From contig PMAM01000345.1 in NCBI GenBank assembly GCA_003152595.1, positions 1 to 42,879 on the forward strand: a stretch of DNA of 42,879 nucleotides. The letters are read 5' to 3'. Below the pieces are notes generated by a model. The model had not been told where the DNA came from and searched no databases. It saw only the letters and a program-made list of their open reading frames with translations. Shown in pieces: positions 7,271 to 42,879 of this stretch. Both the position numbers and the translations under genes were made by a program. The DNA comes from Acidobacterium sp. GTDB taxonomy: Bacteria > Acidobacteriota > Terriglobia > Terriglobales > Acidobacteriaceae. The stretch's first letter is position 1; each line of letters begins with the position of its first letter.

Positions 7271-7321
7271 CGAGCCAGGTCAGATGGAAGTTAGGGCACG
7301 GAAAAACCAACAGACTAGGGT

Positions 7322-7786
7322 GTGTTCGCAGTGCAGCGCACAACGACATTCCGCTCAAGGCGAGATTTCGCTCGGGGAGACCACCGGGGCATTCCCAAAC
7401 CCGGTGTCGGGCGCATCCGACTGCCTGTCCCGCCAGCCACGTCGCCGACCGCAGCAGAGATCACGTATGGGCCAATCCTCAGTGCCGATGAGCCGGCCAT
7501 TCGATCCGCCGTCAAACTTCTTCAAGGAAAGTGGAAAATTGCGATTCTCCGCCAGCTCCAGAATGGCTCCGTCCGGCCGGGTGAACTAAAGAGGCGCCTG
7601 TCGCCGATCTCCAAAAAGGTGCTGAATCAGCATCTCCACCGCATGGAAAAGGACGGGCTGATCGTTCGTTCAGACCTCAGCAGGAGTGTCCCGCACGTGG
7701 AGTATTCCTTGACGAGTCCGCAGGGCTTCGCCACGCTCAATTTGCTCAGTGTGATCGTTCAATGGGGCAGGCAAACCTTTGATTGA
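7322..7786 (+). CDS. HxlR-family winged-helix transcriptional regulator
   Basis: Core LQGKWKIAILRQLQNGSVRPGELKRRLSPISKKVLNQHLHRMEKDGLIVR...VEYSLT is typical of HxlR. The only in-frame starts seen are GTG at 7322 and 7331, which gives a long N-terminal extension. Confidence 0.7.
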   Translation: MFAVQRTTTFRSRRDFARGDHRGIPKPGVGRIRLPVPPATSPTAAEITYGPILSADEPAIRSAVKLLQGKWKIAILRQLQNGSVRPGELKRRLSPISKKVLNQHLHRMEKDGLIVRSDLSRSVPHVEYSLTSPQGFATLNLLSVIVQWGRQTFD

Positions 7787-7843
7787 ATCGGAACCGTGCA
7801 CCGACTCAGGAGTGACCATGCCCACCGTGTATTTCGTATCGGC

Positions 7844-8038
7844 CTATTTCGCGGGTTTCGGCGCAGGGGTCGGACGAGTCGCGGCTTGCGTCGTCGGGTG
7901 CTGCTGCCAGTTTCCGGTGCTCACAGCAAAGGGATCTTTTCCGTGCATCAAAGCAGACCCGAAATAGCTCACGAATATGAGGGTGCCCAGCAATCCCAGT
8001 ACGATTGCGACGGGCTTCCAGGGGACGAGGATGATCAT
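7844..8038 (-). CDS. Small single-pass membrane protein (hypothetical)
   Basis: 64-aa ORF with an ATG preceded by GGAG, one hydrophobic helix (VAIVLGLLGTLIFVSYF) and a Pro/Thr/Ala-rich tail. No homology recognised. Confidence 0.3.
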   Translation of the reverse strand: MIILVPWKPVAIVLGLLGTLIFVSYFGSALMHGKDPFAVSTGNWQQHPTTQAATRPTPAPKPAK

Positions 8039-8250
8039 GGCGCTACTCCGTGGAAGAAGGGCAACTTGCGACTTTAGTCAATCTTATCGCCGAATCGGTT
8101 GAAGCAACCGCCAAAAGCACCGGCTTCAGCGAGCAAAGGAATTGCTATCGGGTTACGCGGTAGAGTCGCATGCAGCGTGCGAGGAAGCCGAGCGGGCGTT
8201 AGGAAGCGGGTGCTGAGCCCAGAGGGCCGCCAGCGGATCGCCGAGGATCC

Positions 8251-8281
8251 AAAAAAAGTTGGGCAGCCCAGAGTGGGCTGC
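8251..8281 (-). terminator. Possible rho-independent terminator (minus strand)
   Basis: 8-bp stem GCAGCCCA/TGGGCTGC (8263-8281) with a 3-nt loop. On the minus strand it is followed, after 5 nt, by a T7 run (A-run 8251-8257 on plus). The spacer between stem and T-run lowers confidence. Confidence 0.3.
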
Positions 8282-8454
8282 GAAATAGCGGCTCGGCCGC
8301 GGGAGGAGTATTCGAACCGTTCTGTCCACGACCAGGTTTCCAGAAACGGTTGGACCAGCGGTTACCGGCCGTTGGCCGAATTGTCTCTCATCACAACTTC
8401 GCCGAATTTTCCGCCGAATTGTGCGCCACAGAGACTCCGATCGTTCCTATTCGC

Positions 8455-9799
<1,345 letters not shown>

Positions 9800-10028
9800 C
9801 TTCCGCCCTCGTGGGTACCCGTGTGATGAGGAGCGAGAGGATTGACGGCAACGTTATGATGCCGAACACCTTCATGCGCGCCTTGAAGGCACCCGGAATG
9901 GGTACTTTGCGGCCCTTTTCGCTTGGGCGATTTCCTTCTTTGTGGGCGGGTCTTACCCATGATCTAAGGCAGGGAATCATGGCTGCCGCCCGAGCGGTTC
10001 CCGAGAGTACAGGTCAGGCGTGGAAGGG

Positions 10029-11627
10029 TTATTTAGACTCGTCGATTACTTCGATCGCAGAGACAGTCGCATAATTCACGATCGGATCAAAGGTCAGGTT
10101 GATCTTTCCTTCCACCGAAGGATGCAGATTGAGAAACGTTTTCGTAATGGCATGTAAACTGCCCGCTTCTTTGTAGATGTCAAAGTTATCGAGCAACATT
10201 GTGCCGTCGGAATAGGCGCGAAAGACACGCTTTCCGGCACCTCCGGACTCAGGACTGTCCGCGCCCCAATAGAGTTCGGCGAAATGGAGCACCACTGTGT
10301 AGCGCCCGCTGGGATCCACGGGAATCGAGTAAGTGAAATGGCCGTAGCGCTCCTGCGAGTACAGCTCTGGATCTGAAGTGCCACTAATTTGCTCCGGGGG
10401 GTCCGAGAGAATTCCATTCTCGAAGTAATTATCCGGATGCCAGACGTCTCCGTGGTGATCCGTAACCGCGGAAGCCTGTGTAACCAGGCGAATGGGGAGT
10501 TGCCGGTGCGGCACACCCGGCAGGATTTCGATCGCGTTCACATAAGGCGTCGACCGGTCCGTTCCAAACTTCAGATGGAGATAACCGTCTTTGTCGGGAT
10601 AGATGTCTTTGAATACCTTCTCATCAGCAACATTCGTTCCAAGGGCATCCGCGCTGATGTTGAATGCACCCAGCAGCGTGCGGCCGTTGGCCTGTACGTA
10701 GAAGAACTGGGTTTTAAAATCGTCGGGCAGCATGGCGACGAAGAACAGGTGCAACTCGTAGGGGCCAGCCGGCAGGGGAACATCGTAGGTGAAATCACCC
10801 GTTCACCAATGCTCGAACAGCATTGGATCGCTGGTGCGCAAAATCGGACTCTGTGGTCGTGCGAAAGCTGTGCCTCCGGAAAAATAACGATCTGCCTGCC
10901 AGTAAGCACCGGCGCTGTCGATTCTTGGAGAGCCATCGTATCCGCAAAGCAATCGCAGAGGAACCTGAGCTGCACCGGCGGGAGTCGACGCTTGGCTCCG
11001 CTCCCGCGAGTTGGAGTTTGCAATTCTGGTTGAAGGGGTGGATCGGTTGCGAACGAAGTAGCCGACCGCGCCCACTGCAAGAACAGCAAGCATGGCCACG
11101 GCAACGGCGTACCCGAGTCTTCGTTTGGGAAAGGAAGAAGGTAGTTGTGGTGGGGCTGCTTCCGCAGTTCCGGATTCCTGCTCGCCCGGGATTGCCGCAC
11201 TCTTTTCTAAGTCGGTGGCGTACCGTTCGCTGGAATCGCGAAATACGAGCGAAGACAGGGTGGTTGTGGCGTCGGGATCAGCCGCCGGCCGCTTGCTGAA
11301 GTCCGGGACGTAGCTTCACAGCGGAATCGTGATCTGGAGATTGTGGAACCTTCCTTCGGACTCGTAGTATTCCCTGAGTCTCTTTCTCAGCCGGTGAACC
11401 TCGACCCGGGCGATGGAATCCGTTGCGCAATCGAAAGAGTTCCTGGAACGCCCAAAGACCTCAGTTGCAATGTTGTATTCAGTAATCTCGTCGATTCGTC
11501 CCTCAAGATACCGATCGCCAAGAAACTGCAGGAGCCTGGCCAGCCGTGGAATCCGAGAGAGAGCCTCCACGATGAGCGCCAACTCTTCGCGTTCTGAAGC
11601 CGCCGACTGAAAGGTGGGGACCTGCAC
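10029..11627 (-). pseudogene. CadC-like winged-HTH / TM / tandem malectin-domain protein interrupted by two in-frame TGA codons
   Basis: One continuous frame of 533 codons read from 11627 down to 10029. It contains the wHTH domain (ARVEVHRLRKRLREYYESEG...ITIPL), TGA at 11316-11318, then SYVPDFSKRP..., a TM helix (AVAMLAVLAVGAVGYFV) and malectin repeat 1 (...DPMLFEHW). A second TGA follows at 10803-10805, then TGDFTYDVPLPAGPYELHLFF..., malectin repeat 2 and a TAA stop. I translated the 11315-11100 linker by hand and found no other stops or frameshifts. Confidence 0.7.
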
Positions 11628-27993: not shown

Positions 27994-28074
27994 CCAGGGT
28001 TTTACCTGATCGATAACTGCCGACCGCTACAGATGTTTTGATAAGGTTCAGGCCACAACAAAGAGGGATGCGAA

Positions 28075-29535
28075 ATGAATTTATCGAGACGAGCTTTTGC
28101 CAGGAGTTGCACACTCACCGCCACCGGACGTGCCCTTGTGGGCGCGCTGCCAGGTCTGGCTCAGGTGCAGGGAGAACACTTCAACACTGCGACCAACCAT
28201 CCGGTGCCGGCCATCCAGGATATTGAAACTACCGAACAGAAGAACGCACGCATGCAGTGGTTCCGCGAGGCGCGCTTCGGGATGTTTATCCACTGGGGAC
28301 TGTACTCCATTCCTGCCGGGCGATGGGATGGCAAGGAGGTCCCGGGAATTGGCGAGTGGATCATGAACCGCGCCTCCATCCCGGTGGCGCAGTACCAGGC
28401 ACTCGCTGCCCAGTTTAATCCCACCCGGTTCAGCGCCGCCGGGATCGTCGGCCTGGCAAAATCCGCCGGCATGAAGTACATCGTGATCACGTCGAAGCAT
28501 CACGATGGTTTCGCGATGTTCGACTCGCAGTCGAATCCGTTTAACATCGTTCAGGCAACGCCGTTCAAACGCGATCCTCTGAAGGAACTTGCCGCGGAGT
28601 GCCGCCGGCAGGGCCTCAAACTGGGCTTCTATTATTCGCAGGATCAGGACTGGACTGCGCCGGGCGGAGCGGCCTATAAGACCGGCGATCACCAGCCTCC
28701 GACATTTCATTGGGACCCCGCTCAGAATGGCAGCTTCGCCGCCTACCTTGAAACCAAGACGATCCCGCAGATCCGGGAGCTGCTGACGAACTACGGTGAT
28801 TTTCCTGCGATCGTGTGGTTCGATACTCCTACAAAGGACATGACCCCGGAACTGGCCGGCAAGATTGTAACGGTCCTCAATCAGCATCCAAAACTAATCT
28901 GGAACAATCGCCTTGGCGGCAGTTATCAGGGAGACACCGAGACCCCCGAACAATACATTCCGGCTCGCGGCTATCCTGGTCGCGACTGGGAGTCGTGCAT
29001 GACGATGAACGACACCTGGGGCTACAAGGTCGACGACACCAATTTCAAGAGTACAGAAACCCTGATCCGAAACCTGATCGATATTGCCAGCAAGGGTGGA
29101 AACTACCTCCTGAACATCGGCCCGGAGGCAACCGGGGAGGTACCCCAACCCGAAGTGACTCGGCTCCAGGAGATGGGCAGATGGCTGGCGGTTAATGGTG
29201 AGGCAATCTATGCAACCCGGCCCACGCTTTTTGGGGACGAAGCCGGCTCGTTTTCCTCGACCGAAAAGGATGAGGACGGGAAGCCAAAGTTCATTCCCAG
29301 CTGGAAGTGGAGATCGACGACCACCTCTAACCGGATCTACATTCACCTTTTCGAGTGGCCGGGCGCCACGTTCCACCTGGACAGGCTGCCGCGCCAGGTT
29401 ACCGGAGCCTACCTGCTGGCGGATTCCTCCCGTAGTCCACTGAAGGTTACTCGAACTGCAGAAGGTGTAGACGTCGCCGTTCCTGCGACGGCGCCTGATC
29501 CGATTGCGAGCGTGCTGGTATTGAAGACGGAATAG
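28075..29535 (+). CDS. Glycoside hydrolase family 29 alpha-L-fucosidase (exported)
   Basis: Tat/Sec-like leader (MNLSRRAFARS...). GH29 motifs ARFGMFIHWGLYSIPAG and KYIVITSKHHDGFAMFDS. C-terminal beta-sandwich domain. Confidence 0.9.
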   Translation: MNLSRRAFARSCTLTATGRALVGALPGLAQVQGEHFNTATNHPVPAIQDIETTEQKNARMQWFREARFGMFIHWGLYSIPAGRWDGKEVPGIGEWIMNRASIPVAQYQALAAQFNPTRFSAAGIVGLAKSAGMKYIVITSKHHDGFAMFDSQSNPFNIVQATPFKRDPLKELAAECRRQGLKLGFYYSQDQDWTAPGGAAYKTGDHQPPTFHWDPAQNGSFAAYLETKTIPQIRELLTNYGDFPAIVWFDTPTKDMTPELAGKIVTVLNQHPKLIWNNRLGGSYQGDTETPEQYIPARGYPGRDWESCMTMNDTWGYKVDDTNFKSTETLIRNLIDIASKGGNYLLNIGPEATGEVPQPEVTRLQEMGRWLAVNGEAIYATRPTLFGDEAGSFSSTEKDEDGKPKFIPSWKWRSTTTSNRIYIHLFEWPGATFHLDRLPRQVTGAYLLADSSRSPLKVTRTAEGVDVAVPATAPDPIASVLVLKTE

Positions 29536-29579
29536 AAGCGATCAGCTCAGACGGTTCTGCCGGCGGGATTCCGGATTCT

Positions 29580-29969
29580 TCAGCTCGACTCCAGAATCAT
29601 GTTGGCGTATTGAATCGTATCTCCGGTGCGGATGAGGCCAATCACCTGGGGGACGCGCTTCTTGAACTCAATGTGAGGTTCAAACTGGACCTCGAGTCCC
29701 GACATGGCCTCAGCGAACTCACTCACGATGGCGGGAGAATTGTTGGGCCGGAATTCCTCCGCCATCGTAATCTGCCCAATCGTGAAGTTCAGGCGTATTG
29801 CTCGCAGAACGTCGAGGACGCGGGGGATGTCGTCGACCAGAGCCAGGTCCACCGTCTCGATGGTGGGCCAGTAAGGGAATCCGCGGTCGGTAATGAGGAG
29901 CGTGTTGGTGTGGCGGACGCGACTGAGCAGGGAATTGATTTGCGGATTGAGGATTCCGGTGCGGACCAT
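29580..29969 (-). CDS. fucU: RbsD/FucU family mutarotase (L-fucose mutarotase / D-ribose pyranase)
   Basis: 129-aa ORF, MVRTGILNPQINSLLSRVRHTNTLLITDRGFP..., typical of the RbsD/FucU family. Located 2 nt downstream of the fucP fragment stop. Confidence 0.8.
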   Translation of the reverse strand: MVRTGILNPQINSLLSRVRHTNTLLITDRGFPYWPTIETVDLALVDDIPRVLDVLRAIRLNFTIGQITMAEEFRPNNSPAIVSEFAEAMSGLEVQFEPHIEFKKRVPQVIGLIRTGDTIQYANMILESS

Positions 29970-29971
29970 AC

Positions 29972-30391
29972 TTATGCCTCTCTTGCCGTCAATGCAGAAG
30001 GGTCTGATTTGACCAGCCGCATATCAGCAAAGGAATAGAACGCGATCAACACGTAGGCCAGAGCCGGGACGGCGTAAGCGGCCGCCAGGCCTCCAAAGTG
30101 AATCGAAAGCAGACCCATCACCGGCGTCAGGACGGCGCCACCAATGATCGCCATCACGATCAGGGAGGCGCCGAGTTTGGCTGTCTCACCCAGGCCCCGA
30201 ATCCCCTGAGCGAAAATCGTCGGGAACATCAGCGACATGAAGAAGCTCGTCAGCAGTAGCGCGATCATGCCTGTCCAGCCCGGGAACAAGGCCCCAACAG
30301 CGGCCAGCACCGTGTTGATCACCGCATAAATCGCCATCAGCCGGCTGGGCTGCACAAAACGCATCAGCCAGGCGGAAAAGAAACGGCCCAT
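29972..30391 (-). pseudogene. fucP: 3'-terminal fragment (about the last third) of the L-fucose:H+ symporter (MFS) gene
   Basis: The 139-aa ORF matches only the C-terminal TM helices of FucP (GRF..W..RF.P......YA...; FMSLMFPTIFAQGIRGLGETAKLGASLIVMAIIGGAVLTPVMG). The in-frame sequence upstream of 30391 (…AIPASLDAKQIRFRSTIRSTKCTVFDDSG) is not transporter-like and reaches a stop at 30479-30481. Confidence 0.7.
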
Positions 30392-30516
30392 CCCGGAGTC
30401 GTCAAAGACAGTGCATTTTGTGGATCGGATTGTCGATCGGAATCGGATCTGTTTGGCGTCGAGTGAGGCAGGGATGGCTCAAAGCGGGGAAGTCCTTCCC
30501 AAGCCGCCCGAAGAGA

Positions 30517-32070
30517 CTAGACGTAGAACTTGAGTGGTTGCTTTTCCGCATCACGAGCTGATCCCATGGTCAACACATTGCCCACCTTGTTCGCAAATCG
30601 TATGGTGACCGGGAGTCCGTCGTTGTAATTGCAAGCGTTGTAGTTGATCTTTGTGAGACCCATGATGTCGGCTAGGACCGTGCGAATGTGAGGGCGCCTT
30701 CCCGTGCTACGCAGAACGGTGATCGACAGCGGGTTCGGTGTTTCAGGGCCGATATAGGTATCAAGCCTGGGCACAAAACCGTTCGTCCACAGCAGGGCGT
30801 TGCGGTCGTTGAGGATAATGGCGGTTCCGCGCAATACCGGATAATCACCGTCGCGGAACAACTTGGACTCGCCGTGCGTCTCCTTGATGCGGACGCCAAC
30901 GACATTGGTACCTTTCGGCGCGGCCTTCTTGAAGGCTTTCCATTCTTCCTCGTTGAAGGTCGTTCGTCCGTGTATAAAGAATTCTTTCGGCGGCGCGCCG
31001 TGCTTTTCCTTGAATGTTTCGAGCACCTTGGCTATCAGACTTTGTGCCTCTTTTGGCTGAAGGTGAAATTCATAGTCCCCGGTTTTCCATGGGCCGTTTG
31101 CGCCCCGAAATACAACGGCGTCACTCTCATTGAGAAACATTTGCGCCGCGCAACAAGCGTGTTCCTGCGGGTCGTTCGGAATCATCTTGAAGACAAGCCC
31201 GATATAGCAAACGCCCGGTCTGACGTGGGCCAGCTTCCACGGCGGTTCCGGTTGAGTCTTGTAGTAAAGCCCGGTCGCCAGATTCCACGCCACCGTTGCA
31301 GGGTCTTGTAACCCTCGGATCGGATAGCCCGCGCTGTTCAGGAATCTGTCGGGTGCCAGTGTCGTCTCGCGGATAAGTTGCGAGGTGTGTCCGAGTTTGA
31401 GCAACCGCGCCTTCACCTGGCGGTGAAAATCCGGCACGTCGTCGAAGATATCTTCGGCGGTCTGGTCAATGACCCCCTGAAACAGCGGAAGGTCGGTTTT
31501 TTCTTTCTGGTTCTTGCCGAATTCACCCTTTGTCAGTTCGAGGCCGGTGCGTCGCGCCAGCGGCTTGCAACGTTGGAAGATGATCTCGGGGAGAATGAAC
31601 ATCCAGACATCGACCGTCTTTTCCTCGTTCTTGTCATAGCGTTCGATTTCACCCACGTAGAGGTCTACCGCCTTGCGTACCGCCTCGTGCTGGTTCGCCG
31701 TGTGCGTGGCGTCGTCGAGCGTCTTGTAGTCGACCGTGCGCTGGACAAACTCGCCGGGACTGATCATGATGCTGAACGCTTCTTCCAGTCCCGGAAAATT
31801 CGAAAGGTGCAGTCTGTGTTCTTTGTCGGTCTTCTTGCGCGGCGGCACGGGAACGAAACCGCCAAGCGCAATGGCCCAGGTCCGAAAATACGAAAGCCCG
31901 TCCTTCGTTCCTATGACTCCGACGGAAACCTCACGCGGACGCGTGGGACCACTGTGCGGCCCGTAGAGGAAAAGCCCGTCCTTCGGATGGTCGCTGGTCT
32001 GCCCGTGGCCGAAAGACAATTCCGGCTCGTCGATATGGATGACGTTGAGGTTTTTTTTAGGCAGTTCCAT
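30517..32070 (-). CDS. Short prokaryotic Argonaute (MID-PIWI only, catalytically inactive type) of a SPARTA system
   Basis: 517 aa from the ATG at 32070 ([24 protein letters not shown]...), overlapping the upstream stop by 14 nt. From memory, it is collinear with characterised SPARTA pAgos: [96 protein letters not shown]-terminal KFYV. The canonical DEDX positions read IGLVF and IHGRT, so the Asp residues are absent. There is no N/PAZ region. Confidence 0.93.
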
Positions 32071-33472
32071 CGGTCTCACCCTCTGAGTTGAACAGGCCCA
32101 GCGTGGAGTCGTCGGTTTCCTCCGCGTCGTCTTCCATCCTCTCCGGCAACACGGTCGTGACCGGCGACGTGAACGCGACCGGCCTCGAATCAAGGGTGAT
32201 GGCGCAAGCGGCGGAGAGAGGCACGGTAATATGCGAACACTCTCCCGAGAGCAGTTCAAGATAAGCCATGAGGCGGCCATGCCATGTGTTATTGCGCCAG
32301 CCCTTGCAGATGGTCCGTCGTAAACGATGCTGTATTGCGCTGTCCCCGATGACGGAACCGGCTCGATTGCCCGCGGCGAGTTCAGCGAACAACACGCGGG
32401 CTTTCAGCTTGAAATGCAGATACGGCCAGAAGGCCGGTGTTGCTGACATGCCATATTGCCACACGCGGCCACCGGCGGCGTTGCGCAGCATGGAGGACCG
32501 GCGCTTGCCTTGACGGCCCCAGGAAATCTTCTTGCCCAACGGCGTCTGCGCATCGCCGATGTGGAACGCCGTCTGCGTCGCAAAAAGGTACTCGTACAAC
32601 CCCTTTGAGCGGCAGAAATTTTCCCATGCGCGGCGGAACATGGAGAACACAAGGTTTTTTGCCTCGCGTGGCTCTATGTCCGGTGATTGACCGCCGCAAT
32701 CAATGAAGTCAAGCAACCTATGTTCGGAATGGATTTCAAACGGGGCAACCTCGGCGAAGTCGCGCGCAACTTCCTCCGACGACGCGAATGAAAAGAAACC
32801 GCGCTGGTAGACCTCGGCGGGTAGCGTGCTTTCACGGCACGTTTGCTCCATCAATTCGAGGTTGATTGGCCCCGGAGGAGAGTAGTAACGAACTGTCTCG
32901 GGGAGGCTGGCGACGCGAAGCCAGTTGGACGTTAGGACCTCCGGCTTTTTCTCGACTTTGATCGCCAGCCGCCTTCGATAGTTCTCCCAATTCGGATTGA
33001 TCGCGGGAGTGGGCGTGCGCGGCACGTTCTGTTTTTCGAAGGTGTCGAGCAGGTCATGCAGACCCCTGGCCCAGCTACCCAGAAAATCGACCCATTGAAG
33101 TTCGCCAATGCCGAACAGCTTTTTGAATACCTCAAGGCGAAGCGGAATGACGAATCGCTTGTCTTTCAACTCCTTCGCAACATCCGAAGCGATTCCGATT
33201 TCCTCTTGGACACCGGGCTTGTCTAGGGTAGCGTCGCGGCAACACAGGAGCATCTTCACGGCTTGACTCTGCAACGTCCCCGTAATCTCCCTTCGCCAGC
33301 GATCACCCGCTTCAAGGGAAAGAATGTCCGCAAAAACGATGTACCCTGCGGCCTCGAGGCGCGGAGCGAGCCACAGCACAAAGTCATCGTCCTCGGGGGT
33401 AGCCTTGCTGATGAACACGAGATTTCGCGTTTTTGGGTTTGCGCTCTCATCCGCGTTGTGGGAGGTTGACAT
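32057..33472 (-). CDS. TIR-APAZ protein (NADase effector partner of short pAgo; SPARTA)
   Basis: 471-aa ORF starting at an ATG. N-terminal TIR domain ([43 protein letters not shown]...[10 protein letters not shown], with a candidate catalytic Glu). APAZ-like remainder with conserved blocks [35 protein letters not shown] and [20 protein letters not shown], and an acidic C-tail. Confidence 0.93.
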
Positions 33473-33995: not shown

Positions 33996-35369
33996 TCAGT
34001 TCCATTGGCCACCCTCCCCCTCACAGGTCCAGACTCCGTATCTTTCTCCGATGGACGGGCCCATCTTTCTGAGCAACTCACATTCTTCCACGAGAGTTTC
34101 CGGTGAGAGCAGTTCGTAAACCAGGCGGGCGATGTCCGCGGGAGGAAGTTGGCAGACGAACCCCTCTTTCCGCAGGATGAACGAAGCCTCATTTTGTGTC
34201 GCGGCCATGGCTTCCTTGCCCGCGTGATCGACCGCCCAGCCCGCCGCGTAGAAATACCCGAGCACCTGAAGGAGGTTGATAGATGTGGTGTAGGCCTTGG
34301 CTCCAATCACCAGGTCAACGCAGGTTCGATCGTCCAGCGGAAAGACGGTGAGAGGCGCGGCATTGGGCACGAACTGAATGATGTCGATCGAAGAGGCGGT
34401 AATTACCAGCTCATCCCCCCACCCTTCGCGGGCGCCGATCACCTCCTTTCTTTTTGCGGCCTGCTCGGAGAAATCCCGCAGACTGGAAAAATCCGCGCAC
34501 TCGACATAGCAGTGCGGCGCAAGCAACGCTGCACTCCACCCCTTGGCCCCGGCCTCTGCCAAAAGGTCGCGCAGCCCTCCCAGGTGATTCTTCGGGGTCA
34601 CGGGCAAGACTCCGGAGATCACGGATTTTCCCTCCACGACGCCACTTCCCGAAGTTAAGACACCGGCAGCGTCGCGCAGAATCTGTTTTTGGCGAATGAG
34701 GCGCCGGCTTTTCGCGTTCCCGCTCTTCACCTCAATCAACTCCACATCCCCATTGTCATGGATGGCAGTGACGTCCCCGATGGCGATCGAATTGGTCACC
34801 GCATTGAAGATGGCTCTTCGGTTCGCCGAGTCGTTTATGGCCGCCCAGTGGCCCAACTCGGCGACGGTGCCCTCGGCGAGAATGGTCTGCTTCACCGGGT
34901 GGGAGCAAAGGATGCGCGTCGTGAACCGATCATAGTCGAAGGCCCGCCACGCCATGCCATCCCCGATTTGCCGTATGGCATTGGCAATCAAACCATGCAG
35001 TGTGATCTGCGACTGGATGAACTCCGCGGCACGATCGGGAAGATTAGCTTCGGCCGCGAGCTTCTCCTTGTAGCTCTTGATCGATTTCTCCTGAACCACG
35101 ATGTCTTCCAGCATATGAAGCTGCAGTTTGGAGAGAGCCAGCTTGTTGCTCTTCCGCTTTCGGCTGATCGACAGATAGCCCTCAAGGATATCGGGATACT
35201 CCGAGGTGGCAAGACGAACCATGCCTGCGGCTTCATGCGCCTTGCCCGGGTTGCCTCGGTTCACGCTCCATGAAAAGGCGCGCCGATACTTATTGCGCAA
35301 GCGTTCCGGATCGGACGCAGATTTATCTTTCTTCGGGCTCATTGGCGCATTATAGGGCGACGAGCGCAC
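33996..35369 (-). CDS. Hypothetical protein with PD-(D/E)xK nuclease-like motif
   Basis: 457-aa ORF (GTG at 35369; in-frame ATG at 35342 gives MSPKKDK...). The central segment NSIAIGDVTAIHDNGDVELIEVKSGN fits the D...(D/E)xK restriction-endonuclease-fold signature. Coiled-coil-like N-region. No family recognised. Confidence 0.55.
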   Translation of the reverse strand: MRSSPYNAPMSPKKDKSASDPERLRNKYRRAFSWSVNRGNPGKAHEAAGMVRLATSEYPDILEGYLSISRKRKSNKLALSKLQLHMLEDIVVQEKSIKSYKEKLAAEANLPDRAAEFIQSQITLHGLIANAIRQIGDGMAWRAFDYDRFTTRILCSHPVKQTILAEGTVAELGHWAAINDSANRRAIFNAVTNSIAIGDVTAIHDNGDVELIEVKSGNAKSRRLIRQKQILRDAAGVLTSGSGVVEGKSVISGVLPVTPKNHLGGLRDLLAEAGAKGWSAALLAPHCYVECADFSSLRDFSEQAAKRKEVIGAREGWGDELVITASSIDIIQFVPNAAPLTVFPLDDRTCVDLVIGAKAYTTSINLLQVLGYFYAAGWAVDHAGKEAMAATQNEASFILRKEGFVCQLPPADIARLVYELLSPETLVEECELLRKMGPSIGERYGVWTCEGEGGQWN

Positions 35370-35455: not shown

Positions 35456-36271
35456 TCACCGGCCTCTTGGGTTTCTGGCAGAGCATGAATCGCAGAAATC
35501 GCGCTTGAAATCCTCGACAATCGTGATCACATCAACGGACTGTGCACTGGACACATACTTGAGTTTTTCACAAATCACTTTTCGCATGGGCGACACACTG
35601 AAGGCAGTCCCCGGATCAATCGTCTGAGTAAGGTCCTCCCAGAGCTGAAGGTGTTGGCACCAGCGGCATCGCTCCTGGGCGATGAATCGCAGAGTGCGCA
35701 TGTATCCAAGGAGTTTCTTGGGATGGGCTGGCGGAGAGCCGATAATTTTCACCAAGTGCTGCGCCATTCGGGACAATTCTTCGTCCGATTGGTTTGCATG
35801 AAGTTGATCTCGATGCTGACGATCAGACTTGGCGATATCCTGCTCGTAGCGCATCAATAGTGTTCTGTTTTCGAGGACCTCGGCAGCTTCCTCCGCGATT
35901 GGCTTGAATCCCATTGCGTCCGCTTCTGGGTAGAGCATTTCCGCTGCCGCTTTGGCACCGTCAATATCGCCTCGAACCTCCAGAAATCGAATCTTCAGTT
36001 TATCGAGCGTCAGTCGGCCCTCAACCAGACCGCTAGGGCGTGAGAGTCGGTAAGCCTCGTTGAAGATATTGTCAATCGACGCTTCTACCGGCTCAGGCAC
36101 TTTGTACGATTGGTGGCTATTGATCGCTTCCATTCGCTTTTCAAATAGCCCGCCGATTCGTACGTAAAGCCTGACGATGAGAGCCTGGACAATGAGAATC
36201 GGATGCCTTAAATCGTAAGCCTCTAGCAGTGCCTCGTCAGCCTGTTGTTCCCACCCTGATTGATTGCGCAC
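35456..36271 (-). CDS. Helical-repeat protein with C-terminal Cys cluster; possibly the C-terminal part of the upstream DUF4365-like gene
   Basis: 271-aa ORF from GTG at 36271. Its frame is open up to 36331 (…SEFLYPSDTKRAKQNLQDAV-RNQSGWEQQ…) and overlaps the upstream ORF by 49 nt. The C-terminus carries CRWC...CEKL...CDSC (zinc-ribbon-like). Confidence 0.5.
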   Translation of the reverse strand: MRNQSGWEQQADEALLEAYDLRHPILIVQALIVRLYVRIGGLFEKRMEAINSHQSYKVPEPVEASIDNIFNEAYRLSRPSGLVEGRLTLDKLKIRFLEVRGDIDGAKAAAEMLYPEADAMGFKPIAEEAAEVLENRTLLMRYEQDIAKSDRQHRDQLHANQSDEELSRMAQHLVKIIGSPPAHPKKLLGYMRTLRFIAQERCRWCQHLQLWEDLTQTIDPGTAFSVSPMRKVICEKLKYVSSAQSVDVITIVEDFKRDFCDSCSARNPRGR

Positions 36272-37488
36272 AGCATCTTGGAGATTCTGTTTGGCCCTCT
36301 TCGTATCGCTCGGATACAGGAACTCGGAATTTCAGCGTGAAAGAGCGTCTCGTTGATTTGGATGTTTGCCTGCATTCCTTCCAGAAAGAGCAGGAGCAGC
36401 TTCGCATCCAGCTTGATTCCTCGATGCGCATTGGGGTGAACAAGGATTTCCGTTGTCACGTCGCGCAACCTCTCCAAAATGGCCGCACGAGTATCGCCGT
36501 CCTTCTCCGTAAGGTATTGGTGATGGAGTGCATCTTGACGTGCCTCAAGCGCTTCAAGTCCCTCCAGCGCCCGCGAACGCGCCAAAAGGCGCTGTTGGTA
36601 GGTTTCCGCGTTGATGAGTCCGATATGGAACTCGGCCCCGTCTCGGAGGGTGATAAGAAACGATTGGTCCCGCGCATTGAGTTCACTTTTGCGCGCCAAT
36701 GCCCGTCGTATATGCCCAAGCGCCGCATAGTGGTCGCCTCGGGTAAATTCGGCATACCCTGCGGTTAGTTGAATCCGCGCCGTCTCCCGGATTTCCAGAT
36801 CAAGAAGCCGCATGAGGTCAAGCACTTCCACGGGGAAACCGGCAGCCACAATGGTGGCTCCGCTGGCAAATAACACATCCCGCGCTTGAGCTGGATCGGT
36901 GATGCTCAGCGATTCGCTGTCAATGCTGAGGACAACGGTTTCGCCGCCGGTGGCCTTGGCCAGCGAGTCATGGATTTGGCGATGGAGACGCCCTTCCTTC
37001 ATGATTCGGGCGTGAATGCCCGGGAGTGACGCTTGCGAGAAGCGTTCGCCAAAATTCAACGCGATCCATTGCTGCTCTCGCCAGGCCGGATTCTCTTCAT
37101 TCAATCGGCGGCTTTCATCCTGAGCCCAAGTGAACCAGAACTCATCCTTCTCAAGGTCGTAGAGGATATAGATTGGCGCAGTCCCGTTTAAGAGATAATT
37201 CAGATTGGCTGTGCGGACGGAATGCGAAAACGACCCGTCGCGGAGAGGAGCGAGGCGGCTGGCTGCCTTCATCTGCACCTGGCCGCGAAAGTTGGTCATT
37301 CGACGGTCCATTTTGAGTTCAAATGAGCCGTCCAGACCATAGTCTTCGACCCGTTCATCGCGGAAGATGATTTCGTCCTGCCCCTTTAGGAGCGCATTGA
37401 GCGCCTTGATGCTCTCGCGTTGGAGTTCAGCCTTTTCGTCCGAGACGGGGAGTGGACCAAGATCCGGGCTGTCGTCGCCAAAACTCAC
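36223..37488 (-). CDS. DUF4365-like (PD-(D/E)xK-type) N-terminal domain protein with helical C-region
   Basis: 421-aa ORF (GTG start). The N-terminal block EDYGLDGSFELK...GQVQMKA...VRTANLNYLLNGTAPIYILYDLEKDEFWFTW matches my recollection of the DUF4365 pattern. The remainder is alpha-helical repeat-like. The last 35 or so residues (IPSSCIRAIRRGPNRISKMLCAINQGGNNRLTRHC) look like out-of-frame sequence. Confidence 0.6.
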   Translation of the reverse strand: MSFGDDSPDLGPLPVSDEKAELQRESIKALNALLKGQDEIIFRDERVEDYGLDGSFELKMDRRMTNFRGQVQMKAASRLAPLRDGSFSHSVRTANLNYLLNGTAPIYILYDLEKDEFWFTWAQDESRRLNEENPAWREQQWIALNFGERFSQASLPGIHARIMKEGRLHRQIHDSLAKATGGETVVLSIDSESLSITDPAQARDVLFASGATIVAAGFPVEVLDLMRLLDLEIRETARIQLTAGYAEFTRGDHYAALGHIRRALARKSELNARDQSFLITLRDGAEFHIGLINAETYQQRLLARSRALEGLEALEARQDALHHQYLTEKDGDTRAAILERLRDVTTEILVHPNAHRGIKLDAKLLLLFLEGMQANIQINETLFHAEIPSSCIRAIRRGPNRISKMLCAINQGGNNRLTRHC

Positions 37489-37714: not shown

Positions 37715-38311
37715 TTGCTCTATACGGCTGAAAATGACCCAGAGCTCGGAACTTGGCTTCGCCACAACGCCGACAGCAAGAGTCCGTTCATTCGCACACT
37801 GGTCGAAGCGGCGAAGCTGGCTTCTCCCGGCGAATATACCGCCCTGCAACGAGCCCTTCGCCGCTTTCGGGCGTCCGATCCCGAACCCGACTCTTCCGTT
37901 CACACCCTGGTTACGGATGCCTACAAGGTGGTGTTCAACGAGCAGAAAGAACTCGATCATCTCGACGTCGCCTTCACTCGATTCAACGCTTCCGTCTTTG
38001 ACAACGCCTTCCCGGAGACGAAAATTCGCTATGCCAGTTCGATTGTGAGCCAAGAGGAGCCCGGCTGGCCCATCGGTTTGTTCGCCCTGCCAGATGACCC
38101 TGTCACTTACCGCGCGCCAAGCCAGTTTCGTTTGGACGTTCCCCACATCTTCATCGCCGAGAAGCTGAGCGGCGTAGCTCCCGTCGACGAATGGGTCCTC
38201 CTACACGAGATGTGTCATTACAAGGTGCCGAACCACGGACCAGATTTCATTGCCCAAGTCAAACAGGCATTGGATGCGACCGGCTGGCGGACACTCATCG
38301 GCAGCTTCTGA
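37715..38311 (+). CDS. SprT-like zinc metalloprotease-domain protein
   Basis: 198-aa ORF (TTG start, AAGGGG upstream). HExxH motif in the context DEWVLLHEMCHYKVPNHGPDF, typical of SprT-like domains. Confidence 0.55.
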   Translation: MLYTAENDPELGTWLRHNADSKSPFIRTLVEAAKLASPGEYTALQRALRRFRASDPEPDSSVHTLVTDAYKVVFNEQKELDHLDVAFTRFNASVFDNAFPETKIRYASSIVSQEEPGWPIGLFALPDDPVTYRAPSQFRLDVPHIFIAEKLSGVAPVDEWVLLHEMCHYKVPNHGPDFIAQVKQALDATGWRTLIGSF

Positions 38312-38390: not shown

Positions 38391-39155
38391 GTGCCCGCCA
38401 GGAACAAGTACCTTCGCCGTTACACACATCTTGAGTCCTTGCGACACATGCTTTGCACGAAGTCCCTCACCCTGCTCGACTATCGCAAGTGGAAGGACAA
38501 GAACGACTCGTACTTTCTCAAGATGTACCAGGAAGAGCGGAAGCGGAAGTCTCTCCTCGTGCTCTGCCTCACGAGTGCTTCGGAGCGATTCCATCTGTGG
38601 CATGTGTTCGGGCCGAAAAAGGAAAGGCGTTCGCTTCTGAGTGCAGGTCAGCCATTCGGATGTGGTCCCTATAACGGCTCTTCACCCTTAGCCAAAATCG
38701 GAGTTCGGATTCGATTCGACCGCTCCAAGCTGATTGAAGCCCTCGCCAACTATCGGGGAATGGTTCGATGGGACGCCGTTGACTATCTAACTCACGCCCA
38801 GCTGGAGGCGCTCGCGACCGAGCGGAACGCAGTCGGTGCCATCGAGCGGTTGCCCTTTATCAAGCGCTATGGCTTTCGCGATGAACTGGAGTTCCGCATC
38901 CTCTTTGAATCAACTAAACGGCAGCTTCCGACTATCGAGATTCCCATTCCCATCGCGTGCATCAACAGAATCATCTTTAGCTACAAACTCAACTATGGAG
39001 ACTACAGAGCAATCCAAGATGCATTGCGTTCAATGGATGGCTGCGCGGGCCTGGATATCCGGCGCTCCAATCTCACCGAAAGCAAGACATGGAAGACCGC
39101 CGGGCAGGAAGTTGTCCTGGCGGCAAGACAAGCAGTAGCGATTAAGAAAAGATGA
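38391..39155 (+). CDS. DUF2971-like hypothetical protein
   Basis: 254-aa ORF (GTG with a GGAGG SD). The N-terminal YLRRYTHLESLRHMLCTKSLTLLDYRKWKDKNDSYF and the later FIKRYGFRDELEFRILF resemble the DUF2971 pattern as I recall it. Confidence 0.45.
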   Translation: MPARNKYLRRYTHLESLRHMLCTKSLTLLDYRKWKDKNDSYFLKMYQEERKRKSLLVLCLTSASERFHLWHVFGPKKERRSLLSAGQPFGCGPYNGSSPLAKIGVRIRFDRSKLIEALANYRGMVRWDAVDYLTHAQLEALATERNAVGAIERLPFIKRYGFRDELEFRILFESTKRQLPTIEIPIPIACINRIIFSYKLNYGDYRAIQDALRSMDGCAGLDIRRSNLTESKTWKTAGQEVVLAARQAVAIKKR

Positions 39156-39795: not shown

Positions 39796-40827
39796 TTAAG
39801 CCACTGCTTTGGCCACCAACTCTTCGGCCGGTACGAAGTCCTGTTTCCTGCGGTCCACCGCGAGCATGTATGCCACCAGCTTTCTGGCTATCGCCATAGT
39901 GGCCCGATTCTTGTTCCCTCGCTGGATTTCCTTCTCCCGGAGCAGGGCCAGCTCGTGGGAGTACCGGGGCGCCAGCTTGGCGGCTTCCACCAGCACGTGC
40001 TGGATGTGCTTGTTCCTCTGCTTGGAAATCGGCGTGCGCATCACCTTGTCGGCAGAAGTCTTCTCAGCGCCGCATAGTCCGCAGTAGCTGATGGCTTCCT
40101 TCACCGATGGGAAGCGGGTGTAGTCTCCGATCTCCAGGGCCCAGGTCAGCGCGGTGATGGGGCCGACTCCGGGGATCGTCCTCAGCCGTCTCAGCCGCTC
40201 CGACAGCAGCGGATCCCGTTCCAGGGAACTGATCAGCGCACGATCCAGTCGCTGTCCCCGCAGGATGTGTTCGCGGCCAAGCCGAAGCAGGGGCCGGATA
40301 CTGTCGCTGATCTCCTCGTTGGTCGAAAACAGTTCAGTGAAGTAACCCATCTTGTGCAGTCGCTGCTTGTCATAGCTGACCCCACTTTCCATGAGCAGCC
40401 CCGATATACGGTTCTTCATCTGCACCGTCTGCCTTACCACCAGGTGCCGATAGCGCAACGTCCGGCGCCGGTCCCGGATCTCGGTCGAAGCCATGTGGCA
40501 CTCGGGCAGAAAGTCGCACCGCAGGCAGTCGGCGATCTTGCCGGCATCGATCCGGTCGTTCTTCTTCTTGGACGCGGCGATGGCCCGGAGCATCAGCGGA
40601 TGGGCCACCTTCACCTTCTCCGCATGCGGAAGCAGGTAATCGTAGATCCAGCCGGTGAAGATCGTCGCTTCCATGGCCATCATCCGGGGTTGCGGTAACG
40701 TCTGGATCCAGGCATCCAGTTCGCGCCGGGTCGATCCGATCTTGCCCTCCCGGTGCACATGACCAGCTGCATCCTTCACGCAATAGCTGATCGTCTTCTT
40801 GTGAACATCCAGTCCGATGTAATACAT
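39796..40827 (-). CDS. IS110 family transposase
   Basis: 343-aa ORF with the hallmark N-terminus MYYIGLDVHKKTISYCVKD (DEDD/RuvC-like domain) and a C-terminal Transposase_20-like region (LRTIPGVGPITALTWALEIGDYTRFPS...SYCGLCGAEKTSADK). Confidence 0.92.
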   Translation of the reverse strand: MYYIGLDVHKKTISYCVKDAAGHVHREGKIGSTRRELDAWIQTLPQPRMMAMEATIFTGWIYDYLLPHAEKVKVAHPLMLRAIAASKKKNDRIDAGKIADCLRCDFLPECHMASTEIRDRRRTLRYRHLVVRQTVQMKNRISGLLMESGVSYDKQRLHKMGYFTELFSTNEEISDSIRPLLRLGREHILRGQRLDRALISSLERDPLLSERLRRLRTIPGVGPITALTWALEIGDYTRFPSVKEAISYCGLCGAEKTSADKVMRTPISKQRNKHIQHVLVEAAKLAPRYSHELALLREKEIQRGNKNRATMAIARKLVAYMLAVDRRKQDFVPAEELVAKAVA

Positions 40828-41496: not shown

Positions 41497-41823
41497 GTGA
41501 TCCCGATCCGTCGTTTCATCCGATTCTCCACCATCCCTGTTCGGGTGGATGTCCGCGTTGTCCTCGCACTTACGATTCTGCTGCTACCGCTTGCGACCCA
41601 GGCCCAGTCGAGCGGTTCACCCTTCGATACCGGCTTCACCGCCCTGCAGACTCTTTTCACCGGGACGATTGCCAAGGTCGCATCGCTGATCGCGATCGTG
41701 ATTGGCGGCTACGGCTTCGCACACGGCGAGCCCGGCGCGAAGAAGGCCCTCGCGGGCGTTGCCGCAGGTACCGGCATAGCGGTGCTGGCTGTCAACGTCC
41801 TGAGCTGGCTCTGGGGCGTATAA
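41497..41823 (+). CDS. trbC: TrbC/VirB2-family conjugative pilin
   Basis: 108-aa ORF (GTG with a GGAGG SD). It has a signal/leader (LALTILLLPLATQAQS) and two hydrophobic helices (TIAKVASLIAIVIGGYGF; ALAGVAAGTGIAVLAVNVLSWLWG) characteristic of VirB2/TrbC. Confidence 0.8.
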   Translation: MIPIRRFIRFSTIPVRVDVRVVLALTILLLPLATQAQSSGSPFDTGFTALQTLFTGTIAKVASLIAIVIGGYGFAHGEPGAKKALAGVAAGTGIAVLAVNVLSWLWGV

Positions 41824-41878
41824 GCCGCTTCCTCCCGCCGTTCATCGCCTTGACCTTGACGAATCGATGTGAGGGCTT

Positions 41879-42181
41879 ATGCAGAGCGACATTCAACCAA
41901 AACGCCGTACCAACCGGGTCTACAAGAGCCTGCATAAGCCGCTCACGTACCTGGGAGTTGAGCGCACTCTGTTCTATTTCGTCTGCGTAGGTGCCGTGGG
42001 TGCCTTCAACCTCTTCAACAGCCTGCTCGCGGGCGTGGCCGTGTTCATCGGCGGATTCGCCTTCGGCCACTGGGTGACGAACAGCGACCCGGCGTTCCTC
42101 CTCATTCTTGCCAGGTCGGAACGGTACAAGAGCCGGTACGACGCGGCGAAACAAAGCACTCCGCGGGTCGAGGTGATGTGA
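41879..42181 (+). CDS. trbD: TrbD/VirB3-family type IV secretion protein
   Basis: 100-aa ORF: RVYKSLHKPLTYLGVERTLFYFVCVGAVGAFNLF...FGHWVTNSDPAFLLIL, typical of VirB3/TrbD. Its stop overlaps the next ATG by 1 nt. Confidence 0.8.
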   Translation: MQSDIQPKRRTNRVYKSLHKPLTYLGVERTLFYFVCVGAVGAFNLFNSLLAGVAVFIGGFAFGHWVTNSDPAFLLILARSERYKSRYDAAKQSTPRVEVM

Positions 42182-42879
42182 TGCTCCGCCTCGACAGGGT
42201 CATCAAGCCGTGGAAGGAAGCAGCCGCACTCTGCGATCACATCAACCTGTACGGTTTCTGGAACGAGACGGCGTTCCTGACCAAGAGCGGCGACCTGGGC
42301 ATGGTGCTGAGCGTCGCCGGCGTGGACTACGAGAGTCTCGACCATGCCGAGCAGGAATACGCGGTGAAACGACTTGAGGCCGCACTGAAAGCGTTCGGCC
42401 CCGGCTTCCACGTCTACCAGTACCTCTTCAAATCGAACCGGCCGGAAATCCCGTTCGCCGACTACGAGAATCCTCTTGTGCAGGAGTCGGTGGACTACAG
42501 GCGTCGGTTCTTTGAGGAGAGGGCAGACAGGCTTTACGAGATCGAAATCTATTACTGCGTTCTCCTCGAAGGCTCACGGTCGAAGACCGGCGTCGGCGCA
42601 GCTCTGGCTCAGCTTTTCCGTGATCCGGCCGGAGCCGTGAACGAGCTGAAGACGCAGTTCACCAACAACGCCATGAAGACGCTTCTGCGCTCACAGATCG
42701 AGCGTGACCTGGCGCGCCTCGAACAATGCGCGCAGGCGTTCGCGCGTCAGCTCGCCGACTTCGTGCATATCGACGTTTTGAACCAGCGCGGCCAGTTCCG
42801 CTTCTTTCGGCGGCTGCTCAACTACGACGACTGGCGCATTGCGGGCCACCCAAAGGACACGCAGTTTCTCGACTACCAG
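42181..42879 (+). CDS. trbE: TrbE/VirB4-family type IV secretion ATPase, N-terminal 233 codons (continues beyond window)
   Basis: Open frame from the ATG at 42181 to the window end (not in the ORF track because it has no stop). MLRLDRVIKPWKEAAALCDHINLYGFWNETAFLTKSGDLGMVLSVAGVDYESLDH... matches the N-terminus of VirB4/TrbE. The order trbC-trbD-trbE is canonical. Confidence 0.8.
   Translation, partial: MLRLDRVIKPWKEAAALCDHINLYGFWNETAFLTKSGDLGMVLSVAGVDYESLDHAEQEYAVKRLEAALKAFGPGFHVYQYLFKSNRPEIPFADYENPLVQESVDYRRRFFEERADRLYEIEIYYCVLLEGSRSKTGVGAALAQLFRDPAGAVNELKTQFTNNAMKTLLRSQIERDLARLEQCAQAFARQLADFVHIDVLNQRGQFRFFRRLLNYDDWRIAGHPKDTQFLDYQ

Follow-up and report, generated by a model that had tools for sequence, protein, structure and literature searches.

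SPARTA systems have been characterised from Maribacter polysiphoniae (MapSPARTA), Crenotalea thermophila (CrtSPARTA) and a Bacillales bacterium (BabSPARTA). In each of them, two coupled genes encode a TIR-APAZ protein and a short prokaryotic Argonaute (pAgo) composed of MID and PIWI domains. Other short pAgos operate with different partners: in SPARDA, the effector is a DREN/DUF4365-APAZ nuclease, while SPARSA combines a short pAgo with a SIR2-APAZ protein and also depletes NAD.

Here, we analysed a window of 42,879 nt (the whole stretch of Acidobacterium sp. DNA under study; contig PMAM01000345.1, assembly GCA_003152595.1), in which a first-pass annotation had proposed a SPARTA-type operon. 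Our analysis covered gene structure, homology, functional residues, selective constraint, gene pairing and genomic context. The operon shows the same coupled two-gene order and the same TIR-APAZ plus MID-PIWI Ago architecture as the Map, Crt and Bab systems, with which it can be aligned end to end. It further shares with them the TIR glutamate, the 5′-phosphate pocket and RNA-guide contacts, as well as an acidic tail, the Ago dimerisation residues (Y270 and K514) and non-acidic residues at the mapped PIWI positions. In contrast, overall identity to the characterised systems is only about 40% for Ago and 31% for TIR-APAZ; the TIR-APAZ protein carries a 15-aa N-terminal extension and the N-terminal region of Ago small insertions. 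At the residue level, Map H9 is replaced by K23 and D133 by E150, the BB loop is divergent, and no residue clearly corresponds to Y105. The setting is also distinct, with a soil acidobacterium as host and the cassette on a conjugative element. Searching the literature for experiments on the SPARTA clade of the window operon yielded none, the results being dominated by taxon names. Based on these sequence comparisons, the two genes most probably constitute an intact canonical SPARTA (short pAgo clade S2A) that would act by the Map/Crt/Bab mechanism, a reading to which we assign a probability of roughly 0.88.

Gene structure and conserved residues of the operon

The first-pass annotation had described a 471-aa TIR-APAZ protein encoded first and a 517-aa Argonaute encoded second, coupled by a 14-nt overlap. 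All of this was recovered, and at base level the overlap reads ATGGAACTGCCTAA (Table 1). The longest open reading frame in the Ago frame spans 30517..32280 (-) and comprises 587 aa; a start at 32070 (MELPKK) gives 517 aa and is immediately preceded on its 5′ side by a Shine-Dalgarno-like GAGGG. Public gene calls in five independent assemblies likewise give 471 and 517 aa, and intact gene pairs at related loci overlap by 1, 4, 10 or 14 nt. Rfam and tRNA scans of the whole window returned no match, and neither a tRNA attachment site nor a known RNA was found near the operon.

Table 1 Features of the SPARTA operon and its surroundings in the analysed window
Feature	Position	Strand	Basis
Truncated fucP, chromosomal side	29972-30391		Profile positions 310-429 of 438 only
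Left junction of mobile island	30388..30389	.	Homology limit against island-free relative; truncated fucP
Short prokaryotic Argonaute gene, 517 aa, MID and PIWI only	30517..32070	-	PADLOC, PDB, Foldseek
PIWI domain without catalytic tetrad	30520..31233	-	hhalign against TtAgo, motif alignment, clade conservation
MID 5′-phosphate pocket and RNA-guide contacts (H216, K220, Q231, R234, T237, K271)	31258..31425	-	MapAgo alignment
Overlap of TIR-APAZ stop and Ago start, 14 nt; translational coupling	32057..32070	-	Base-level sequence
TIR-APAZ gene, 471 aa, first gene of operon	32057..33472	-	ORF, Pfam, PADLOC, 8fex_A alignment
[quoted passage not shown]
Linker and APAZ region, about aa 150-440	32153..33025	-	Continuous HMMER alignment to APAZ part of MapTIR-APAZ
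TIR domain, aa 19-141	33050..33418	-	Pfam TIR_2, E=4.6e-20
Codon of catalytic Glu E91	33200-33202	-	Alignment to MapTIR E77
448/457-aa protein, unannotated family, invariant D190..E204-x-K206..Q218	33996..35369	-	
DUF4365-TPR-like gene; a 1-nt frameshift near 36326 divides it into ORFs of 421 aa and 271 aa	35456..37488	-	
IS110-family transposase, between cargo and T4SS genes	39796..40827	-	Pfam DEDD_Tnp_IS110, Transposase_20
T4SS genes of conjugative element	41497..42879	+	ORFs and precomputed Pfam TrbC, VirB3, VirB4_TrbE_N, same contig
TrbC/VirB2	41497-41823	+	Pfam TrbC
VirB3	41879-42181	+	Pfam VirB3
VirB4, running past window end	from about 42181	+	Pfam VirB4_TrbE_N

The TIR-APAZ protein matched the PADLOC profile Aga_TIR-PNTD1-PNTD2 (E=4.6e-173) and aligned to residues 2-429 of MapTIR-APAZ (8fex_A) with E=1.6e-50 and 31% identity. 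Its partner matched pAgo_I (E=1.7e-212), and residues 10-517 aligned to residues 4-507 of the 507-aa BabAgo (E=6e-111) with no unmatched domain, in line with an Argonaute that has MID and PIWI only. CrtAgo and MapAgo were matched with E of about 1e-107 and roughly 40% identity. The claimed block-by-block collinearity with known SPARTA proteins is thus substantiated by full-length alignments of both chains. In a PDB sequence search, SPARTA Agos reached 1e-106 to 6e-111 and the next class 1e-39, while the best 36 PDB matches in Foldseek were all SPARTA Agos (E=4e-40 to 1e-30, about 495-510 aligned columns), with a predicted Ago structure of moderate confidence (pLDDT 61). Judged by these sequence and fold searches, the Ago is nearer to SPARTA than to the other short pAgo classes. 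The PADLOC matches and the full-length matches to solved chains together exclude chance as an explanation for the identity of the operon.

Detection by profile searches, which the first-pass annotation had suggested as a check, gave a split result. The TIR_2 model, the SPARTA profiles of PADLOC and the fold search all matched, but the Pfam Piwi and MID models failed to match Ago even at E≤10, and an NCBIfam search returned no match for either protein. Taken literally, the Piwi miss would trip one of the refuting conditions set in the first-pass annotation; we nevertheless give decisive weight to the specialised profiles, the solved homologues and the fold search.

SPARDA Agos are also homologous to the window Ago (PDB 9jsb, 9qbl and 9om4, with E of about 1e-38 to 1e-40, and of about 1e-25 in Foldseek), and 2.5 kb upstream there is a gene with a DUF4365 domain. 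However, we rejected a SPARDA identity because the partner of the Ago contains TIR and is not a DUF4365 (DREN)-APAZ protein, whereas the nearby DUF4365 gene encodes no APAZ, carries a TPR-like fusion and a frameshift, and is unlinked to Ago in other genomes. SPARSA and TtAgo have the MID-PIWI core and guide-binding logic in common with the window Ago, but the operon has no SIR2 domain. A long catalytic pAgo of the TtAgo type was rejected as well, since N and PAZ are both missing, the match to TtAgo is confined to the C-terminal PIWI (E=0.05) and the mapped catalytic Asp positions are substituted.

At the residue level, H216, K220, Q231 and K271 are identical to the MapAgo 5′-phosphate pocket (H207, K211, Q222 and K263), and R234 and T237 to its RNA 2′-OH contacts R225 and T228, the roles of which have been described (PMC10355822). 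These MID pocket and guide-contact residues are invariant in 25/25 clade members. By alignment, Ago Y270, K514 and K403 correspond to interface and guide-contact residues. Compared with the characterised SPARTA systems, Y270, K514, F515, E150 and the K403/N183 pair show either conservation or a conservative exchange; N183 of TIR-APAZ corresponds to Bab/Map N174, which contacts Ago K395. The functional roles of the aligned residues were taken from PMC10355822, PMC10899771 and PMC9097488.

The catalytic aspartates of the Ago had been called lost on account of the sequences IGLVF and IHGRT. Both motifs are in the protein, as YIGLVF (aa 289-294) and FFIHGRT (aa 364-370), and the three nuclease-tetrad positions that we mapped are all non-acidic, TtAgo E512 (the glutamate finger) lying outside the mapped set. 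In a weak hhalign alignment (E=0.05), TtAgo D546 falls opposite G368/R369 and D660 opposite N494, a position variable among clade members. Global hhalign gave no usable alignment of the D478/E512 region to TtAgo; by motif alignment only, D478 is opposite V293, which is invariant and identical to MapAgo.

In the TIR domain, the catalytic Glu, singled out at the outset as a residue to be confirmed by alignment, is present: E91 (GVQEEI) lies opposite MapTIR E77 (GVLKEL; Map/Crt E77) and is retained in every member of the window's subclade. Map F45 is matched by W59, which is aromatic and invariant, while Map Y105 falls opposite L119 beside a 4-residue indel, with F116 and F120 close by. The BB-loop sequence has diverged from Map (EAGDRWR vs DKGVDFW). 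At the C-terminus, the last 31 residues comprise 11 Asp/Glu and 1 Lys/Arg, and equally acidic TIR-APAZ tails occur in 22/22 relatives; the role of this tail has been described for BabSPARTA (PMC10899771). Apart from the Y105 position and the BB loop, every testable sequence-level SPARTA feature is found in the operon.

Relatives, selection and genomic setting

Across 29 related genomic loci, TIR-APAZ is located directly upstream of Ago in 28, and no other gene is common to them. This pairing, with nothing else shared, marks the two genes as a stand-alone, horizontally mobile cassette of clade S2A. At the nucleotide level, the closest relatives match no further than the two CDS. Relatives at 70-79% identity were found in Gammaproteobacteria, Nitrosomonas, Trichlorobacter and Chloroflexi. 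Defence and conjugation genes also surround the cassette in relatives. In Acidobacteria, the cassette appears repeatedly in cargo regions of conjugative elements.

The operon had been placed at the very edge of a mobile block and next to T4SS genes. The first statement is correct: an island-free relative (L040) shows homology over window positions 28047-30388 only, and about 128 nt separate this junction from the Ago stop at 30517. The second is not, as the T4SS genes begin about 8 kb away, past the IS110 transposase and three further genes, of which one is frameshifted. The cassette is carried as cargo: it occupies a variable slot where an integrative conjugative element ends, within an Acidobacteriaceae/Terriglobia chromosome.

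This element looks decayed: it carries the IS110 insertion and the frameshifted DUF4365-TPR gene, lacks an integrase at this end and adjoins a truncated fucP. About 8/29 related loci carry truncated or split SPARTA genes, which indicates that loss of function is common in the clade, and a scan that does not reach acidobacterial promoter types found no sigma-70-like promoter upstream of the operon on the coding strand. The operon could thus be a relic with intact sequence that is no longer expressed or active and rides a decaying conjugative element. We consider this improbable, however, because both ORFs are full length with all mapped functional residues kept, and the identical intact sequence recurs in many independent soil and peat assemblies. 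Moreover, dN/dS values against relatives of 0.04-0.07 for Ago and 0.10-0.14 for TIR-APAZ show that both genes are under purifying selection.

TIR chemistry and upstream neighbours

An alternative that accepts an active complex is that the operon encodes a SPARTA-like system whose TIR output or activation differs from Map, Crt and Bab, for example through a signalling nucleotide in place of simple NAD depletion, or through another oligomeric trigger. The low identity of TIR-APAZ to its Map counterpart, the diverged BB loop, the H9 to K23 exchange and the lack of a clear Y105 equivalent would fit such a divergence. In addition, an alphaproteobacterial sister subclade carries Asp or Asn in place of the catalytic Glu while purifying selection is maintained, which suggests plasticity of the TIR chemistry within the clade. 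SPARTA proteins of this VQDDL or VQDNI type occur, for example, in Mesorhizobium metallidurans and Qipengyuania. The window protein itself, however, retains E91 and, with W59, an aromatic residue; the acidic tail and the residues of the Ago-Ago interface are conserved, and no second effector gene that could serve as signal receiver is conserved beside the cassette. A different output therefore seems quite improbable, and canonical SPARTA activity remains the preferred reading.

The first-pass annotation had also pointed to nuclease-like genes immediately upstream. One of them is indeed a DUF4365-TPR gene with a Pfam-detected DUF4365 domain, but it is frameshifted: a tblastn comparison places the frame change between 36328 and 36325, and the same split is present in five assemblies, compared with about 677 aa for DUF4365-TPR homologues. 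The PADLOC match of this protein is weak (E=8.8e-9) and covers positions 29-117 of the 429-position Aga_REase-PNTD profile only. Elsewhere, the gene adjoins T4SS genes without SPARTA, and a search for papers on DUF4365-TPR defence found none. The other gene, separated from TIR-APAZ by 523 nt, belongs to the unannotated D..ExK family, a large one that forms no fewer than 1,220 clusters when grouped at 50% identity. No match to it was obtained in Pfam, PADLOC, NCBIfam, PHROGs or a PDB profile search, and its AF2 model (pTM 0.82) had no fold match by Foldseek against PDB and BFVD. Homologues of this 457-aa protein occur without SPARTA, and the family sits in defence-cargo positions.

Neither neighbour accompanies SPARTA at any related locus (0/29), and we rejected both as SPARTA accessories on the grounds of this lack of co-occurrence and of homology ending at the two CDS. 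Although the genes lie side by side in one orientation and DUF4365 is the nuclease domain of the SPARDA effector, with the partial match to the Aga_REase-PNTD N-terminus, one composite multi-gene defence system is largely refuted by the co-occurrence data and extremely improbable, given also the missing APAZ, the TPR-like fusion, the frameshift, the gap to TIR-APAZ, and the report by Koopal et al. that the APAZ protein is the sole specific partner of short pAgos (PMC9097488).

Proposed mechanism and significance

The mechanism put forward in the first-pass annotation is the published SPARTA mechanism. For the window operon, we infer from the Map, Crt and Bab systems that a complex forms, and likewise its guide type, its trigger, the NADase output and the phenotype. 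The TIR-APAZ protein and its Argonaute partner would be co-translated and assemble into a heterodimer, the MID pocket of which would hold the 5′-phosphate of small guide RNAs drawn from the transcriptome. Pairing of the guide with complementary ssDNA of a highly transcribed multicopy invader would displace the acidic tail and trigger Ago-Ago dimerisation and subsequent tetramerisation. The tetramer would then gather the TIR domains into a composite active site that hydrolyses NAD(P)+, leading to arrest or death of the cell and to anti-plasmid immunity at the population level. The Argonaute itself would not be expected to cleave nucleic acids.

SPARTA is an already described immune system, and the window operon is an ordinary orthologue that leaves the understanding of SPARTA unchanged. 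Two side leads emerged from its surroundings and relatives, the unannotated D..ExK family and the Glu-to-Asp/Asn subclade. It is conceivable, if doubtful, that the 457-aa D..E-x-K..Q family is a new single-gene nuclease-type defence and that the Asp/Asn sister branch hints at a non-canonical TIR output. In practical terms, the operon, with about 40% (Ago) and 31% (TIR-APAZ) identity to the studied systems, offers divergent material for comparative biochemistry or SPARTA-based nucleic-acid detection. To our knowledge, few defence systems have been studied in Acidobacteriota, to which the window operon adds an intact SPARTA orthologue, and its two-gene cassette is a self-contained module moving between phyla.

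A short Argonaute paired with TIR-APAZ

The 471-aa protein carries a Pfam TIR_2 domain (aa 19-141, E=4.6e-20) and matches the PADLOC TIR-PNTD1-PNTD2 (TIR-APAZ) profile (E=4.6e-173), and residues 2-429 of the solved Maribacter polysiphoniae MapTIR-APAZ (8fex_A) align with it in a single stretch (E=1.6e-50, 31% identity). The 517-aa protein matches PADLOC pAgo_I (E=1.7e-212) and aligns end-to-end with the 507-aa SPARTA Argonautes BabAgo, CrtAgo, and MapAgo (E=6e-111 to 1e-106, ~40% identity); it therefore contains only MID and PIWI domains. These results bear out the first-pass annotation, which had described a TIR and an APAZ region in the first protein and an Argonaute (Ago) reduced to MID and PIWI in the second. 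Detection of the Ago by the Pfam Piwi model, suggested there as a profile check, failed even at E<=10, and NCBIfam offers no model for the Ago or its partner. These missing matches reflect the limits of general libraries and are no argument against the SPARTA assignment. An AlphaFold model of Ago reached only moderate confidence (pLDDT 61, pTM 0.60); even so, SPARTA Agos took the first 36 places among its PDB matches (E=4e-40 to 1e-30, TM 0.55-0.72), ahead of those of SPARDA (E ~1e-25).

The predicted coupling of the two genes was confirmed by ORFs, by gene calls of 471 and 517 aa on the same sequence in five independent metagenome assemblies, and by base-level reading: at the start of Ago and the stop of TIR-APAZ the two genes overlap by 14 nt (ATGGAACTGCCTAA), and a Shine-Dalgarno-like GAGGG motif lies directly 5' of the overlap.

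Coordinates of features in the window
Feature	Position	Strand	Remarks
Tyrosine integrase (Phage_integrase + Phage_int_M)	8534-9799	-	flanked by several ORFs without family matches
fucP fragment (L-fucose:H+ symporter)	29972-30391	-	139 aa; only last third of L-fucose permease matched
Ago ORF	30517-32280	-	internal start 32070 (MELPKK...) gives 517 aa
TIR-APAZ ORF	32057-33472	-	471 aa
448/457-aa protein	33996-35369	-	member of a large family (>=1,220 clusters, 50% identity)
DUF4365 + TPR-like gene, split	35456-37488	-	421-aa and 271-aa ORFs; 1-nt frameshift near 36326
198-aa protein	37715-38311	+	HExxH motif (HEMCH); weak YgjP-like metallopeptidase match
254-aa protein	38391-39155	+	no family match

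Functional residues and predicted mechanism

Residues listed in structure papers (PMC10355822, PMC10899771, PMC9097488) were mapped via HMMER alignments. In the TIR domain, the catalytic Glu (Map E77) corresponds to E91, Map F45, which stacks on adenine according to these lists, is replaced by W59, and Map Y105 falls tentatively opposite L119, beside an indel. A variant TIR output has a low probability in our estimation. In Ago, the 5'-phosphate pocket H207/K211/Q222/K263 corresponds to H216/K220/Q231/K271, the guide 2'-OH readers R225 and T228 to R234 and T237, and the Ago-Ago interface residues D133, Y262, and K504/Y505 to E150, Y270, and K514/F515, while the guide-contact pair K395 (Ago)/N174 (TIR-APAZ) corresponds to K403/N183. 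All 25 clade members compared carry the mapped Ago residues without variation. The C-terminal 31 residues of TIR-APAZ include 11 Asp/Glu and one Lys/Arg, resembling the autoinhibitory tail of BabSPARTA.

For the catalytic tetrad, TtAgo was taken from plasmid pTT27, and D478, E512, D546, and D660 were confirmed in its sequence. A weak (E=0.05) yet in-register profile comparison aligned D546 with G368/R369 and D660 with N494; the N494 column is variable in the clade. D478 (AVGFD) was placed on V293 solely via motif alignment on YIGLV; V293 is invariant in the clade and identical in MapAgo, which was demonstrated to be non-cleaving (PMC9097488). The motifs reported earlier are present (YIGLVF, aa 289-294; FFIHGRT, aa 364-370), and the proposed loss of catalytic Asp residues is supported at three tetrad positions, at D546 and D660 by the weak profile comparison and at D478 by motif only.

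Profiles, solved homologues, and mapped residues thus agree with the original assignment to SPARTA. The published SPARTA mechanism is the best explanation for the pair, and we infer every step from homology. TIR-APAZ and Ago would form a heterodimer holding a guide RNA through the Ago 5'-phosphate pocket. Recognition of complementary ssDNA by the loaded complex would displace the TIR-APAZ tail, followed by Ago-mediated dimerisation and then tetramerisation, in which the TIR domains would build a composite active site that hydrolyses NAD(P)+, leading to growth arrest.

In an alphaproteobacterial sister subclade within this SPARTA clade (L017-L033; e.g., L018:1004-2413, L019:8595-10004, L022:8580-9989), 10 loci have Asp (VQDDL) and three have Asn (VQDNI) where the catalytic Glu of TIR is expected, and the betaA motif reads FLIK in place of FISK. 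The TIR domain there is under purifying selection (omega 0.05-0.23), and this subclade may represent a SPARTA branch with changed TIR chemistry.

Conservation of the cassette and its island setting

At E<=1e-20 the family is large, counting 3,887 proteins. Horizontal spread is indicated by relatives at 70-90% identity from Acidobacteriota (Tunturibacter, 85%), Thiodiazotropha, Nitrosomonas, Trichlorobacter, and Chloroflexi. TIR-APAZ lies immediately 5' of Ago in 28 of 29 genomic loci, intact pairs overlap by 1 to 14 nt, and nucleotide homology with the closest relatives stops within a few bases of both CDSs (~30516-33434). We therefore regard the two-gene cassette as the conserved, mobile unit, in agreement with Koopal et al. 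on short pAgo systems generally (PMC9097488). Against four acidobacterial relatives, dN/dS (Nei-Gojobori) was 0.04-0.07 for Ago and 0.10-0.14 for TIR-APAZ; that the operon is a silent SPARTA relic appears improbable. Among the 29 loci, the cassette seems often pseudogenised: in about eight (L009, L020, L029, L030, L031, L033, L034, L035), TIR-APAZ and/or Ago is truncated, split, or a remnant, although contig ends could explain some cases.

The window background is acidobacterial chromosome (TonB-type OMP_b-brl_4, FG-GAP/ASPIC, glycosidases, fucose cluster). Directly 3' of the Ago stop lies a truncated fucP, whose cut coincides with the island junction. In L040, an island-free relative at 94% identity, fucP is longer, and homology to the window is limited to 28047-30388, which puts the junction at 30388/30389, ~128 nt from the operon. 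Neither integrase nor tRNA was found at this end, which looks eroded, unless fucP was destroyed by the insertion or by a deletion. On the other side of the operon, the order is the 448/457-aa gene, DUF4365, a YgjP/SprT-like gene, the 254-aa gene, an IS110 transposase, TrbC/VirB2, VirB3, and VirB4; the 198-aa and 254-aa genes sit in island cargo between the DUF4365 gene and IS110. The proposed position at the edge of a mobile block therefore stands, but the T4SS genes, described as adjoining, are ~8 kb off. The conjugative element looks decayed because of IS110, the frameshifted neighbour, the missing integrase, and the truncated fucP. A second putative mobile region (5883-11299), which holds the tyrosine integrase at 8534-9799, lies between glycosidase genes.

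The related element L048-L051 has an unbroken DUF4365-TPR gene of 677 aa at the equivalent position beside T4SS genes, and after it come an AbiE-like pair and a tyrosine integrase; this suggests that the SPARTA-bearing segment of the window is a variable cargo slot. In the acidobacterial relatives L008 and L010, SPARTA comes after a methylase, a ResIII helicase, and a GHKL-ATPase protein, with a T4 coupling protein gene 3' of SPARTA in L008. The end of the gene for the GHKL-ATPase protein (~1,055 aa, Sacsin/HATPase_c_3 domains; L008:5419-8595, L010:5431-8589) overlaps the TIR-APAZ start by 4 nt; an N6/N4 methylase precedes it in both, with ResIII helicase also in L010. In those genomes this arrangement may represent a defence module 5' of SPARTA that shares its transcript; the window lacks it.

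Upstream neighbours of the operon

The nuclease-like genes reported upstream are a DUF4365 gene and a member of a large family that no library annotates. DUF4365-TPR homologues measure ~677 aa, and tblastn switches frame between 36328 and 36325, so that the two ORFs are halves of one frameshifted gene; the frameshift falls outside any homopolymer and is shared by five independent assemblies. In the 448/457-aa family, D128, D190, E204, K206, and Q218 are invariant among members at 18-39% identity, and the protein shows a PD-(D/E)xK-like signature (IGDVT...VELIEVK). No family member matched Pfam or PADLOC, the window protein also had no NCBIfam or PHROG match, and its confident AF2 model (pTM 0.82) found no fold match in PDB or BFVD. 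Homologues are stand-alone genes without SPARTA, one beside an SNF2/DUF4391/GmrSD/methylase cluster, and we consider the gene a candidate new nuclease-type defence gene.

None of the 29 SPARTA loci contains either gene; both are therefore neighbours of SPARTA rather than components of it, and a composite system of SPARTA with its neighbouring genes is unlikely. The window pair adds a further example of an already known system, whose kind itself is not new.
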